Source: a virus
Strand: one strand, 5' to 3'
Length of the DNA: 51,803 nucleotides
IMG/VR virus record: IMGVR_UViG_3300023097_000005
Location: 1-51,803 of that record
Positions 2,243 through 9,853 of this stretch are shown piece after piece. The notes under the pieces are model-generated. The model had not been told where the DNA came from and did not search any database. It saw only the letters and a list, made by a program, of their open reading frames with translations. The translations under genes and the position numbers were made by a program. The first letter of the stretch is position 1; every line of letters begins with the position of its first letter.

Positions 2243-3403
2243 TTACCGAACCTCGATAAACACATCCTCCCCATGACTCCGCAGTGCCTCTACGTTTCTC
2301 CTGATCTCAACTGACAGGTTCCAGGCCAGAACCACGAACAGAATCTTCCGAGCCTGCATTGTGCCAATCTCTGTGAATGGCACAATGCGCATGCCGCTCG
2401 TGCGCTTGTTCCACTTGGTCGGCGTGGTATCGGCCAGCACATCCAACTTCACGCCAGCCATATTCAGGATGGAAATACCCTTGGCTGCCGCTCCGCATCC
2501 AACAGTGTAAAATCCATCATCCTGATAGGTTTTGATGCGTTCCTTAATACGCGCGATTTTCTCAGCTACATGCGCTTTCCACCAGCGATAAATAGGACCG
2601 CGATGCAGTCCAACAGCGCGCTCCCATTGCATCCGGTTCTTCACACGAACAGATGACTCGCCCGCCAGTCCAAGCACGAAAACGTAGCTGGTTCCATGGA
2701 TGTCGTGCATGACAATATCCAACACTTTTAGACCGGATCGCTGCGCCAAATTCGCCATGGAGACGGAGTTGAAATACGAGATGTGCTCGTGATAAATCGT
2801 GTCGCACTCGCCATTCACGACGATGTTCGCCTGGGAGGTGGCGACAAACAACCGAGACCCGCTATGCATTATTTTTACGCATTTTCGTAAAAACTCCATC
2901 GGGCGGTGCGTGTGGGCGACAACATTCTGCGCGGTAATGATGTCGAAGGTGTGCCCCTCGGGGAATGTTGCATCCTCAAATAGCGAGATAATAACTCCGT
3001 GCCCTTTGGTAGCCGCGATAACCGCCAAGTTCACAGCTGGATCAACGCCGGTTGTCTTCAGGCCCAGCGCCTTAAAGGCGTCCAGTTGCGAGCCATCATT
3101 GCTAGCGATGTCTAAAATGGATGAGGCTGACGGCACGTAGCTCAACGCCGTGCGCGCAAAGGAGGCGAAGAAATCCGCCGCCGTTCGGCCTGTTCCGGAA
3201 CAGTAAGCGTAATCACTGTAAAGAACCAGCGGATCGACGGCCCCACTTAATTGCAGATGGCAGCAAGCCGCGCAGCGATTGACCCGCATCGGCACCAATT
3301 CATCCACTCCGTAGGTGTTGACTAAAGGCATCCCTCCAAAGTCAATGAGCGGAACCAGCACCCCCTCGCAGCACAGACATCTAGGAAGCGGGATGATGTT
3401 CAT
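2243..3403 (-). CDS. NDP-sugar C-methyltransferase-like SAM-dependent methyltransferase
   Basis: N-terminal CxxC...CxxC zinc ribbon (CLCCEG...CAACCH), SAM motif I ILDIASNDG, and a C-terminal C-methyltransferase-type domain. Start refined to Met at 3403 (MNIIPLPRC); the longer ORF N-terminus looks out of frame. Confidence 0.7.
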   Translation of the reverse strand: MNIIPLPRCLCCEGVLVPLIDFGGMPLVNTYGVDELVPMRVNRCAACCHLQLSGAVDPLVLYSDYAYCSGTGRTAADFFASFARTALSYVPSASSILDIASNDGSQLDAFKALGLKTTGVDPAVNLAVIAATKGHGVIISLFEDATFPEGHTFDIITAQNVVAHTHRPMEFLRKCVKIMHSGSRLFVATSQANIVVNGECDTIYHEHISYFNSVSMANLAQRSGLKVLDIVMHDIHGTSYVFVLGLAGESSVRVKNRMQWERAVGLHRGPIYRWWKAHVAEKIARIKERIKTYQDDGFYTVGCGAAAKGISILNMAGVKLDVLADTTPTKWNKRTSGMRIVPFTEIGTMQARKILFVVLAWNLSVEIRRNVEALRSHGEDVFIEVR

Positions 3404-4076
3404 GGACGAGACTGATCTTGGATGGGTTGCCGCTGAAAACCTTAGGCTCGTACCACGGGATGGGATAGCCCGGTTCGATGCGAATGGGGTGATCGCCCAC
3501 AAACTGACGGCAGAACTCAGCCACCGGCACAGCATTACCAGTGCAGCAATCCATGATGCCATTAACCTCCGTTTGAAGCGCCACATCCACCAAACGTGCG
3601 GCCACTTCGCGAACATCCATAAAGTCTCGGGAGCCGTCGATAACCTTAAACACCTCGTCACCGCGATTCATGGCCTCGGCCAAACTCGGCACGAGACATT
3701 CCCTGCGCTGACCTGGGCCATGAAGATACCATAGCCTGACCCATTTGGCGCGGGGCAACTTGCTCATCAGAAATTCGCGCACGAAAGTCTTGGCCATTCC
3801 GTAGGCTGGTGGAATCGCCACCGTCTCAAGGCATGTTCCGGCCACGGTGATGTTCTTGATTTCATCAGCCAGCATGGCGTCCAGTAAATCGCACTGCCAT
3901 TGGGCATGTTCCAGATGGGAGGCGTTTTCGTAGTTGGGCAATCCACCCCACGCCAAATGGATGACGGCAGCCGGTCGATCTGTAAAATCATTGGAGAGTT
4001 CGATTCCTCGATCCAACAGGCACTTCACGACATGCTTGCCCACAAAACCTGACTTTCCTGTGACCAATACCTTCAT
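3381..4076 (-). CDS. NAD-dependent sugar epimerase/reductase (extended SDR family)
   Basis: MKVLVTGKSGFVGKHV Rossmann GxxGxxG motif and a YGMAK (YxxxK) catalytic motif. Confidence 0.75.
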   Translation of the reverse strand: MKVLVTGKSGFVGKHVVKCLLDRGIELSNDFTDRPAAVIHLAWGGLPNYENASHLEHAQWQCDLLDAMLADEIKNITVAGTCLETVAIPPAYGMAKTFVREFLMSKLPRAKWVRLWYLHGPGQRRECLVPSLAEAMNRGDEVFKVIDGSRDFMDVREVAARLVDVALQTEVNGIMDCCTGNAVPVAEFCRQFVGDHPIRIEPGYPIPWYEPKVFSGNPSKISLVHEHHPAS

Positions 4077-8218: not shown

Positions 8219-8912
8219 GTGCTAATTCAAGATTTTTTTGAATCTCATCCGAGAAACCGCCGTGCGACCAGTGCTGATGTACAAAAGGCACGCCTAATTC
8301 AACATCCGTGTTCGTCCAATTGATGCGCTCGCGATGATGATTCCAGAGCCATGCCCCCATGATGTTCCACTCGCTGAAATCCTTGGAGGGCTGTGCGGCA
8401 ATGTAATTTTCCAAGCTCATTCCGTGGACCCTCCAGAACCATTGGCGTAGACCTTCTAGCGCCCAGCGTGGAACGCAGAAGGGATGGCGGCGCATGAACT
8501 CAAACTCCACCGGTCGTTTCATCGCCTTTTCGGTCACCGCGCGCCAGAATTGAGCGTTATCGCCCGTCAGGCTGCTATATGGGGTATAGAGCCAATTCGC
8601 CCTGTTTCCATCCACACAGTCGGATGGTGTAATTTCACGGGTAAAGATCGTATCGCTGTCGGTGTAGAGGATGTAATCGGCGTCCGTAAAGGAGTCAGCG
8701 TGGAGTTTGCAACTCTGCTGATCCAAATAGCCGTCCATTTTCTCATGGATGAAGAAGACGGTTTCTGCGGTGCCGGTCGGCGGATGCTGTCCATGCGGAA
8801 CAACCACAATCGTCTTTCGGAATCCCTTGGCGAATCGCTGGATAGAGCGAAGACAGTAGGTGAGCCACTCAAAATCCCCTGCATACGACCGAACGAAAAT
8901 GTCACAGGTCAC
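8211..8912 (-). CDS. GT-A fold glycosyltransferase-like protein (DxD motif)
   Basis: CDIFVRSYAGDFEWLTYCLRSIQRF...ILYTDSDTIF (DSD). Confidence 0.45.
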   Translation of the reverse strand: MTCDIFVRSYAGDFEWLTYCLRSIQRFAKGFRKTIVVVPHGQHPPTGTAETVFFIHEKMDGYLDQQSCKLHADSFTDADYILYTDSDTIFTREITPSDCVDGNRANWLYTPYSSLTGDNAQFWRAVTEKAMKRPVEFEFMRRHPFCVPRWALEGLRQWFWRVHGMSLENYIAAQPSKDFSEWNIMGAWLWNHHRERINWTNTDVELGVPFVHQHWSHGGFSDEIQKNLELALA

Positions 8913-9853
8913 TTGGATTTCATTCTGGTTTTTGCCGATCCCAAAAGTTTGACCTTCCGTAGTTCGGCGTGAAGTTGTTGCTTCCGGCTCGGCTTGTCTT
9001 CCACCAGTCCAGCCAGTTCGGCGCAGTGAAATCGAATGCTCTCAGCCAGCGATCTTGCCACTACCGTAGCTGGACCGGGATTGGTGATGAAAACCTTGGT
9101 AGTTTCGGGGCTTGGAATCGAACCAAGAACCTCGCTTGAATGAGAAGCGCGTGCGGCCACTACACCTCCCCGAGCTTCGCGCAGGCGTTGGATCAAACTC
9201 CCATCCTTGTTTCGATGGAATAACACCGCCTTGGATTCGATGATCGACAACGATTCTGCATCGGGAAATACCGGAGCGCCGCTGGTCGGATCGTCCCAGA
9301 CCTTGTAGAACTTGTCGTGAATCAGTTCGGTGTGATGCGTCTTGGGAGTGAAATCCTCCTTAAAAAACACATCCCACGGGATATTTGCCAGATTCCACAG
9401 GTTCATCGTGTAGTCTCGGACCTTGGCTGGATAAACTCCAACGCCGCTATTATGAACGGAGTTTGGGGTAATTACCTGATCGAGCATGAAGGGCTTCCCG
9501 CATGTCTTGTATTCTTCCTCGATCCGATCTAGCCATTCTGGAACTATGGGAACCGCATCCGGCTCCAGCCAGAGCCACGGCATGGACTCGTTCATGTCGG
9601 CCACATGTTGGGCAGATCGCTTCCACATCATATTGGCAATGAAGGGATAAATCGTCTCAGTGTCATCCACTGAAAACTCAGCCACTCGTCCAAAGCAGCC
9701 TTGCAGCGTTTCGATGACGCCTGTGCTCTTGGTGTCGATATGCACCGCCAGAAGGCAGTCGTGTTTTTTTACACCGCCCAGTTCGGCAATCCATGAGGCA
9801 AGACGCTCCGCAATTGGTTTATCCTTGGCGCAAAAAGCAATGATAACCAGCAT
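8909..9853 (-). CDS. Glycosyltransferase-like protein with an embedded tRNA-like segment
   Basis: PWLWLEPDAVPIVPEWLDRIEEEY (EPD acidic motif). The peptide ARASHSSEVLGSIPSPE is the translation of a tRNA-like sequence. The C-terminal 50 aa may be a separate unit. Confidence 0.4.
   Translation of the reverse strand: MLVIIAFCAKDKPIAERLASWIAELGGVKKHDCLLAVHIDTKSTGVIETLQGCFGRVAEFSVDDTETIYPFIANMMWKRSAQHVADMNESMPWLWLEPDAVPIVPEWLDRIEEEYKTCGKPFMLDQVITPNSVHNSGVGVYPAKVRDYTMNLWNLANIPWDVFFKEDFTPKTHHTELIHDKFYKVWDDPTSGAPVFPDAESLSIIESKAVLFHRNKDGSLIQRLREARGGVVAARASHSSEVLGSIPSPETTKVFITNPGPATVVARSLAESIRFHCAELAGLVEDKPSRKQQLHAELRKVKLLGSAKTRMKSK
9103..9174 (-). tRNA. tRNA-like element, CAU anticodon, C1-A72 mismatch (possibly degenerate or pseudo)
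   Basis: The minus strand reads CTCGGGG AG GTGT AGTGGCC GCAC G CGCTT CTCATTC AAGCG AGGTT CTTGG TTCGATT CCAAG CCCCGAA A. This is a full cloverleaf with a canonical T-arm. It has A8, no A21, and U37 instead of a purine. Confidence 0.35.

Follow-up and report, generated by a model that had tools for sequence, protein, structure and literature searches.

To our knowledge, some mycobacteriophages are so far the only phages whose particles have been shown to be glycosylated, and their glycans are discussed as shields against antibodies. Chloroviruses and mimiviruses build unusual methylated glycans on their capsid or fibril proteins with cytoplasmic GT-A glycosyltransferases (GTs) and methyltransferases. 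Passages of three articles (PMC11256854, PMC11600133 and PMC12619734, relaying Freeman 2023) describe mycobacteriophage capsid and tail-tube C-termini as O-glycosylated by phage GTs, with three tandem GT genes beside an O-methyltransferase gene in Cluster O phages such as Corndog and GT genes near the right genome end in F1 phages such as Che8, and a section of the review PMC9614988 credits chloroviruses and mimiviruses with an autonomous glycosylation machinery. Here we describe a gene cassette at positions 2243–9853 of a 51,803-nt stretch of viral DNA (IMG/VR record IMGVR_UViG_3300023097_000005; hereafter the window, with positions 1-based on it), which lies between a probable scaffold gene and the major capsid gene and opens with a predicted GT that we call U314. 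We put at even chances the reading that this cassette encodes a modular cytoplasmic system that glycosylates a virion protein, the major capsid protein being the likeliest. We found no head-operon cassette of this kind described in the literature.

Like the mycobacteriophage systems, the cassette would supply its own soluble GTs and a methyltransferase and has the capsid as its predicted target; the mycobacteriophage attachment site is the capsid C-terminus, and the capsid protein of the window likewise ends in a disordered, Ser/Thr-bearing tail. It differs from those systems in lying within the head operon at the scaffold–capsid junction, and in being larger, hypervariable, equipped for tailoring of nucleoside diphosphate (NDP) sugars (a C-methyltransferase and a short-chain dehydrogenase/reductase, SDR; a radical-SAM enzyme in relatives) and probably directed at a Gram-negative host. 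Chloroviruses and mimiviruses share with the window phage GT8-like viral enzymes, which are the nearest folds to U314 in BFVD at an identity of ≤15%, and are unlike it in being eukaryotic giant viruses with double-jelly-roll capsids and scattered glycosylation genes. A third resemblance is to bacterial O-antigen and capsule clusters and to Gtr/Oac modules, which also combine a modular set of GT and tailoring genes, variable at a fixed locus and of slightly lower GC content. Unlike these, the cassette sits in the late structural operon of an apparently lytic phage and has no membrane protein, and Pfam scans of the window and of the relatives' cassettes returned no flippase, polymerase, priming phosphoglycosyl transferase, nucleotidyltransferase or 4,6-dehydratase family.

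The cassette consists of 11 tightly packed minus-strand open reading frames (ORFs) between the 382-aa ORF of the probable scaffold and the 407-aa ORF of the capsid protein (Table 1), which bears out the placement and shared strand described in the original prediction, an earlier reading of the letters alone. Where about nine sugar genes had been counted, we assign eight sugar-related genes, five of them firmly and three tentatively, and take two further ORFs to be selfish elements and one to be an orphan. All but two pairs of neighbouring genes in the block overlap by 4 nt or are 2–4 nt apart; the first HNH gene is preceded by a gap of 28 nt, and the SDR and C-methyltransferase genes overlap by 23 nt. 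Such short junctions make translational coupling plausible. The first cassette gene begins 2 nt past the scaffold stop, whereas a 187-nt promoter-like spacer precedes the capsid gene, so the cassette appears coupled to the scaffold and portal transcript. The predicted translational coupling is thus plausible within the block and to the scaffold gene and breaks off at the leader that parts the cassette from the capsid gene; likewise, the predicted late co-expression with structural genes would hold for scaffold and portal, and the capsid gene is not expressed by simple read-through. A scan of the cassette for sigma-70 promoters and terminators gave no signal beyond shuffled expectation. Cassette GC content lies 0–3.5 points under that of the flanks, with a dip to 0.48 at 5–7 kb; we considered a compositionally foreign origin and set it aside, as so small a difference is weak evidence.

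The 187-nt spacer holds a promoter-like element, TTGAC-N17-CGTAAAAA, spelled more fully TTGACC-N16-TAAAAA, and a leader of ~150 nt. It aligns across 7 relatives with a mean column identity of 66% and shows compensatory changes at 8/30 predicted pairs; no Rfam family matched the leader and no obvious Shine-Dalgarno sequence was seen in it. These features point to a probable second promoter that serves the capsid gene itself, and the leader may be a capsid-specific expression control element.

The position of the cassette is conserved. Eleven related loci of the capsid lineage, retrieved with portal, capsid and U314 as probes and spanning capsid identities from 77% to 31%, all carry a cassette at exactly the scaffold–capsid junction (11/11), and a U314 homologue is its first gene at every locus, the window included (12/12), while cassette size ranges from 1.6 to 7.6 kb. 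This conservation of the junction is beyond chance. A search of related phages for the same insertion point had been suggested as a check, and its outcome supports the core of the original prediction, a glycan-building and tailoring cassette within a head-morphogenesis operon, in a position conserved across a phage family. In a locus at ~20% portal identity (L012), a tandem-duplicated U314, a DUF6492-like gene and two methyltransferase genes lie directly upstream of the portal gene, and the cassette is thus still within the head module.

What follows U314 varies between phages whose flanking genes share 60–77% identity. Two relatives (L010 and L001) carry DUF6492, GT31-like, U262, a Methyltransf_24 enzyme, the SDR and the C-methyltransferase, which is the window's set minus the HNH genes and U236; L005 has the same set plus a TylF O-methyltransferase, and L002 is without the SDR and C-methyltransferase. 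The cassettes of L007 and L016 hold Methyltransf_23, Methyltransf_11 and radical-SAM enzymes together with weak GT2 and GT9 matches, that of L013 has two Methyltransf_24 enzymes and four unknowns, those of L009 and L014 have a long form of U314 and a few small genes, and in L015 a single 548-aa U314-type protein is the whole cassette. Pooled, the variable genes of the relatives are methyltransferases and glycosyltransferases, with FkbM among the families seen and Methyltransf_24 the commonest (7/35 proteins). Highly variable content, together with the landing of HNH endonucleases and small orphan ORFs at the same junction, is what a permissive cargo slot filled with drifting morons of no common function would produce. 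We regard such a slot as extremely improbable, because all genomes examined, down to a capsid identity of 31%, have U314 first, with its catalytic residues kept invariant, and because the variable genes are almost all GTs and sugar methyltransferases and so share one theme.

U314 has 165 homologues, none annotated. Neither U314 nor 53 of its homologues matches a Pfam family, PF01501 included, and its profile finds no match among PDB sequences. The AlphaFold2 (AF2) model (predicted local distance difference test, pLDDT, 86.5 overall and >95 over residues 1–230) predicts a GT-A domain followed by a helical, very basic C-terminal tail. A Foldseek comparison with the PDB returned the Skp1 alpha-galactosyltransferase (GalT; 6mw5, 3e-7), COLGALT1, glycogenin, the GT8 enzyme 3tzt and XylT1, with E 3e-7 to 6e-6 for the Skp1 GalT, glycogenin and 3tzt, so that its structural neighbours include the protein-modifying GT-A enzymes Skp1 GalT, collagen GalT, glycogenin and xylosyltransferase-1; in BFVD, GT8-like enzymes of uncultured phages as well as of giant viruses were nearest. 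With glycogenin and the GT8 family U314 shares the GT-A fold, an acidic-x-acidic motif near residue 100 and a His near residue 213, positions that we take, without superposition, to be those of the glycogenin Mn site. It is unlike them in its identity of only 10–13%, in having E-P-D instead of D-x-D, and in its extra helical basic tail. Residues E97, D99 and H213 are invariant in 53 aligned sequences.

Three U314 architectures occur: a GT followed by a helix and a very basic tail, a tandem GT-GT form, and a GT followed by an unknown 220-aa domain and a basic tail. The tandem form measures 417–491 aa and is found on many contigs of 53–58 kb (for example L012, 9001–10422), and the form with the ~220-aa middle domain measures 519–548 aa (L015, 8118–9764). 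We also considered whether the C-terminal tail mimics the coat-binding end of the scaffold, an idea dropped after local alignment gave non-significant z-scores of -1.4 to 2.4.

The structural neighbours of U314 modify diverse cytoplasmic proteins, the cassette enzymes are soluble, and the cassette is coupled to the scaffold gene and not to the capsid gene, all of which would also suit glycosylation of a soluble target outside the virion, be it the scaffold or another assembly factor, a host protein modified as by an effector, or a small molecule. We think such a target quite unlikely: hypervariable tailoring fits an exposed surface best, virion proteins are the most abundant late soluble proteins, and the GTs carry no fused toxin-like or effector domain. 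Under the reading of virion glycosylation, the cassette would be transcribed together with the portal and scaffold genes, and U314, a GT-A enzyme that is soluble and keeps an invariant E-x-D...H metal site, would put the first sugar directly onto the protein acceptor.

The remaining firmly assigned enzymes could extend and tailor a glycan begun in this way. The GT31-like protein alone matches PF01762 only faintly (0.068); 44 of 54 scanned members of its family of 446 homologues match PF01762 Galactosyl_T (best E 2.5e-14), and the family profile finds B3GALT5 in the PDB (8e-13), then B3GALT6, C1GALT1 and B3GNT2. The family conserves R86-x-N88-x-S90 in the segment where, presumably and without alignment to a solved GT31, the canonical DDD motif of GT31 enzymes would be expected, and it retains a later D-D motif in which D155 is invariant. 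The cassette gave no match to a GT family in PHROGs. Four or five GT-A/Fringe-like candidates had been proposed for the block; two GTs, the GT8-like and the GT31-like enzyme, are solid, two further candidates are tentative, and two are HNH endonucleases.

The C-methyltransferase ORF was over-extended when taken as 2243–3661, and its real start is near 3403 or 3370. It matches PF08421 (2e-5), PF13489 (1.5e-13) and PF08484 (2.7e-17), which are the Zn-binding N-terminal domain, the S-adenosylmethionine (SAM) methyltransferase domain and the C-terminal domain (Methyltransf_13/23/14), carries the Cys pairs CLCC and CAAC, and aligns over nearly its full length with PDB entries for the D-mycarose 3-C-methyltransferase MtmC (4rv9, 5e-40, residues 9–357), KijD1 (8e-26) and TcaB9 (6e-25). 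With these enzymes of actinomycete antibiotic pathways it shares the three-domain architecture and a full-length alignment, and it is unlike them in being phage-encoded and capsid-adjacent and in the absence of thymidylyltransferase, 4,6-dehydratase and 2,3-dehydratase; because these upstream enzymes are absent, the NDP-sugar substrate must come from the host. The SDR matches PF01370 Epimerase (1e-10) and phrog_540 (2e-13), with MoeE5 and GDP-6-deoxy-D-mannose reductase as PDB matches, keeps intact GxxGxxG (GKSGFVG) and YxxxK (YGMAK) motifs, and is a probable 4-ketoreductase. The second methyltransferase matches PF13578 (1.7e-10) and RMNT_CmcI (0.012), and NCBIfam added nothing new for the cassette beyond weak methylase and SDR matches. 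The Zn-ribbon C-methyltransferase of the NDP-hexose type, the extended-SDR epimerase/reductase and the additional SAM methyltransferase named in the original prediction are all upheld by these results.

From the known chemistry of MtmC and TcaB9, a branched-sugar pathway can be proposed in which a host-made NDP-4-keto-6-deoxyhexose would be C-3-methylated by the MtmC/TcaB9-like enzyme and the methylated intermediate then reduced by the short SDR to a branched 3-C-methyl-6-deoxyhexose donor. The GT31-like enzyme and one or two putative GT-A-like or Stealth-like transferases would extend the primed glycan, and the Methyltransf_24 enzyme would add a further methyl group. Related phages would exchange tailoring genes (TylF, FkbM, radical SAM, other GTs), making the cassette a serotype-like hypervariable glycan locus with a fixed place in the head operon, whose benefit may be a surface shield or surface diversity.

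The predicted acceptor, proposed earlier as a putative major capsid protein, adopts an HK97 fold in an AF2 model built on an alignment of 33 unannotated homologues (pLDDT 70; predicted template modeling score, pTM, 0.74) with a long spine helix. Foldseek against the PDB returned HK97-fold capsid proteins only, the best being the N4 capsid (9e99, E 2e-11), with Moo19, B2, DEV and cyanopodophage capsids as further neighbours. Six cysteines are nearly invariant in the family (C3, C80, C109, C360, C394 and C403). At the C-terminus (encoded by 832–870), the last ~11 residues are predicted to be disordered and have low confidence in the AF2 model; a conserved Cys-x8/9-Cys is followed there by 2–6 variable Ser/Thr/Tyr-rich residues, which in the window phage gives Cys-x8-Cys-Thr-Ser-Gly-Leu. 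The tail ending CTSGL pairs with C-methyltransferase cassettes, and CTATYNP or CTTSYP with radical-SAM cassettes. The Cys-x8/9-Cys loop could be a disulfide or metal site, or a site of S- or O-glycosylation. A second virion protein with a capsid-like C-terminal motif was looked for and none was found. Position and abundance favor the capsid as the acceptor, possibly through its C-terminal tail; other candidates are a 316-aa Ala/Ser/Thr-rich protein on the same strand and a 686-aa Thr/Gly-rich protein, which had been placed in the same operon and is in fact divergently transcribed from the opposite strand.

No genuine cassette protein has a membrane-strength hydrophobic segment (69 proteins from 9 loci, after one spurious antisense ORF and one over-extended N-terminus were set aside), and no bactoprenol-linked GT or acyltransferase Pfam family was found in the cassettes scanned. 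Soluble enzymes, the lack of export machinery, head-operon placement in two arrangements and the protein-glycosylating structural neighbours of U314 argue for direct cytoplasmic glycosylation of a virion protein. The virion glycosylation suggested in the original prediction is accordingly one that we infer from position, from soluble enzymes and missing export machinery, and from analogy.

The same absences bear on the proposal that the cassette remodels an envelope glycan of the host (lipopolysaccharide (LPS) core, O-antigen, capsule or S-layer) through host lipid carriers and export, and so blocks superinfection or the adsorption of progeny to debris. Weak GT9, GT2, GT34 and Stealth matches in the relatives' cassettes would fit this proposal, as would a u-spanin-like lysis gene that suggests a Gram-negative host; GT8 and GT9 enzymes are typically LPS-core transferases, and C-methyl and O-methyl deoxysugars are typical of bacterial surface glycans. 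Known envelope-converting cassettes, on the other hand, are prophage-expressed and include the membrane proteins GtrA/B/C or Oac, and here none of the 69 cassette proteins has a membrane segment, nor did a Pfam scan of 48 ORFs turn up an integrase or a lysogeny module. Late expression would leave little time to replace an existing envelope, and a role directed at the host would hardly account for a cassette fixed within the head operon in two arrangements. Taken together, we consider envelope remodeling unlikely. The host itself is probably Gram-negative (diderm), as the lysis cassette includes a gene of u-spanin architecture (Table 1); an actinobacterial host, suggested by the "Actinomycetes" label of a metagenome-assembled genome bin containing the relative L010, conflicts with the u-spanin-like gene and was not adopted.

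Some phage GTs are known to decorate DNA with a variety of glycans (Pyle 2024, as cited in a passage of PMC12619734). The cassette might likewise attach a complex glycan to the phage's own DNA as a hypermodification, in the way that T4-like and other phages modify hydroxymethyl-pyrimidines: the very basic C-terminal tail of U314 could bind nucleic acid, and a novel base-activating enzyme could hide among genes that are mostly unannotated. This strikes us as very improbable. The Pfam scan of the 48 non-cassette ORFs matched DUF7222, methyltransferases, an M15 endolysin, an SU10-type adaptor, AAA and HNH, and revealed no thymidylate-synthase-like hydroxymethylase, kinase, other base-modification family or integrase, in agreement with the earlier statement that no hydroxymethylase gene is present; DNA-methylase families appeared in it only weakly (N6_N4_Mtase, E 0.0036). 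DNA-modification genes, moreover, normally lie in early or replication modules and not between scaffold and capsid genes, and we know of no DNA glycosylation system that features multiple sugar O- or C-methyltransferases.

Several observations weigh against glycosylation of the capsid by this cassette. The cassette is coupled not to the capsid gene, which is preceded by a conserved promoter-like leader of its own, but to the scaffold gene. The scaffold–capsid junction also takes selfish HNH genes and is in that sense a permissive insertion site, and three cassette ORFs are without firm function. The link between capsid tail class and cassette class is confounded by phylogeny and could be explained by common descent. 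The absence of base-modification genes is weak evidence when ~90% of the genome's genes are unannotated. Bacterial relatives in GT8 and GT9 are mostly LPS-core enzymes, which together with a probable diderm host makes LPS a possible alternative target. Finally, no sequence homology to the mycobacteriophage GTs was detected: tblastn with U314, U236 and U262 found no match at E <= 0.01 in 50,697 GenBank phage records.

A fuller version of the proposal, which we hold only tentatively and think rather doubtful, is that of a widespread family of ~50–58-kb uncultured Gram-negative phages with a capsid serotype locus, in which the U314 tail docks to procapsids, U314 primes the capsid, possibly at its Cys-flanked tail, and swappable modules build strain-specific, heavily C- and O-methylated glycans. 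On that view, virion glycosylation would be neither peculiar to actinobacteriophages nor tied to animal immunity, but a surface-diversity system that evolves in environmental phages. If the cassette does glycosylate the capsid, such glycosylation reaches more widely than has been assumed. Grazers, proteases, adsorption to non-hosts or capsid-sensing host defences could be among the natural pressures that diversify it, and gene position alone would suffice to predict it. The cassette would then represent a compact, soluble and host-independent toolkit that joins a probable protein-priming GT8-like enzyme to the enzymes for a branched methyl-sugar donor, and unannotated families with 165 (U314), 166 (U236) and 446 (GT31-like) homologues in the searches run gain a working hypothesis.

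Table 1. Features of the window discussed in the text, with the evidence on which each assignment rests
Feature	Position	Strand	Basis
Major capsid protein, HK97 fold, 407 aa	832..2055	minus	AF2 model and Foldseek
Promoter-like element and structured 5' leader of the capsid gene (187 nt)	2056..2242	minus	conservation in relatives
NDP-hexose 3-C-methyltransferase, MtmC/TcaB9-type	2243..3403	minus	Pfam and PDB matches
Short extended-SDR NDP-sugar epimerase/reductase, 231 aa	3381..4076	minus	PF01370 and phrog_540
U236, probable distant GT-A relative (tentative)	4073..4783 (called start 4768)	minus	widespread unannotated family
HNH homing endonuclease	4765..5235	minus	phrog_59 1.8e-21, HNH_3 4.5e-5
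Class I SAM methyltransferase, Methyltransf_24 (CmcI/rhamnosyl-O-methyltransferase-like)	5240..5842	minus	PF13578
U262, conserved cassette protein	5846..6634 (called start 6601)	minus	shared with relatives
75-aa ORF	6598..6825	minus	called gene on source contig
GT31 (beta-1,3-galactosyltransferase/Fringe)-like glycosyltransferase, 237 aa	6822..7535	minus	family profile
HNH homing endonuclease	7532..8218	minus	phrog_374 2.2e-53
DUF6492 protein, 233 aa	8211..8912	minus	Pfam
U314, predicted GT-A glycosyltransferase, glycogenin/GT8-like fold	8909..9853	minus	AF2 and Foldseek
Probable scaffolding protein, 382 aa	9856..11004	minus	coiled-coil-like composition and position
Probable portal, 795 aa	11279..13666	minus	size and position
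Probable large terminase, 612 aa	14317..16155	minus	Walker A GAGATGKS and Walker B FVVIDEM; synteny kept
Ala/Glu/Arg-rich, apparently all-helical protein, 1572 aa	16152-20870	minus	directly upstream of terminase gene
Thr/Gly-rich protein, 686 aa, candidate acceptor	23035-25095	opposite to the cassette	
M15 peptidase endolysin	44734-45204	minus	lysis neighbour
Holin-like protein, 148 aa	45201-45647	minus	lysis neighbour
u-spanin-like protein, 215 aa	46403-47050	minus	lipobox LLCLALAGC and C-terminal membrane anchor
Ala/Ser/Thr-rich protein, 316 aa, candidate acceptor	48805-49755	minus	

Three of the cassette ORFs carry tentative assignments. The DUF6492 protein matches Pfam DUF6492 (1.5e-6) and Stealth_CR2 (0.006, and 7e-5 in one homologue), its profile gave non-significant PDB matches to GNPTAB and the Skp1 GalT, and it is possibly a Stealth-like or GT-like transferase; a relation to the GT8-like family of U314 was tried with hhalign and none was found. 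U236 has 166 homologues and no Pfam match. In hhalign comparisons it aligns with the GT31-like family at a probability of 72% (E 3.4e-5, 79 columns) and with the U314 family at just 6%, so we tentatively place it as a GT-A protein that is probably distantly related to the GT31-like enzyme. U262 is common to L001, L002, L005 and L010 at 65–67% identity. The original prediction had called it WcbI-like, and that resemblance proved faint (E 0.089; 0.003 in one homologue); with its profile finding no match in the PDB, membership in WcbI is unsupported. The 75-aa ORF matched no family in Pfam, PHROGs or NCBIfam scans.

The two HNH genes are selfish insertions and not sugar enzymes: relatives lack them at the same positions, and the site of the 7532–8218 gene is empty in L001, L010 and L005. 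In L007, an HNH/HNH_5 endonuclease gene lies on the opposite strand just ahead of the capsid gene (8904–9773, minus), and in L001 an orphan 154-aa ORF (13766–14230) stands right after the scaffold gene; the borders of the cassette look like hotspots for mobile genes. Antisense ORFs of 314–331 aa in the GT8-like/DUF6492 part of L001 (14989–15984, minus) and L005 (2918–3862, minus) took the place of the true plus-strand genes when genes were called naively by longest ORF. Probably shadow ORFs, they can mislead automated annotation.

The window begins and ends with an exact 127-nt direct repeat (1–127 and 51677–51803), so the phage genome that it represents is a closed circle of 51,676 bp (~51.7 kb) once the repeat is counted a single time. 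An identical sequence is on record as the metagenomic contig k141_1961971 of ENA ERZ27228610, with gene calls. On the minus strand the order is ORFs of 1572, 612, 238, 795, 91 and 382 aa, the block at 2243–9853 and the 407-aa ORF; 3' of the latter, ORFs of 62, 501, 181, 153 and 316 aa run over the window junction, which the 501-aa gene itself crosses (5' end 581, 3' end 50752, minus strand).

Neither Pfam nor PHROGs matched the terminase, portal, scaffold and capsid ORFs, searches of PDB sequences with the terminase, the portal and a capsid profile found nothing, and GenBank phages gave no match to the region at either the DNA or the protein level, capsid included. On these sequence comparisons the phage belongs to a deeply novel lineage with no cultured relative. 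The scaffold, portal and terminase labels are probable ones, drawn from composition, motifs, size and conserved order. The scaffold is rich in Ala (14%), Glu (14%) and Lys (10%), typical of a helical coiled coil, and its gene always lies between portal and cassette in relatives; the portal is conserved in relatives at identities from 69% down to 20%, and the terminase at 55–64%.

The 1572-aa protein carries W(T/A)PPEA repeats at its N-terminus and matched no family, and its L001 counterpart measures 2326 aa at 29% identity. Among known capsids, that of N4 is closest to the capsid of this phage, and the genome also encodes an SU10-type adaptor domain; the virion may be podovirus-like, with the 1572-aa protein as an internal protein that is ejected or as one of tape-measure-like kind.

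The late operon also includes, downstream of the capsid and tail genes, a gene for a 137-aa PAS-domain protein (PAS 6e-10; 48224–48637, minus). The matching region of L015 encodes a PAS protein (13751–14401), and the corresponding regions of L007 (14735–15208) and L016 (12933–13388) encode response-regulator receiver-domain proteins. Signalling domains in a phage structural region are unexpected.

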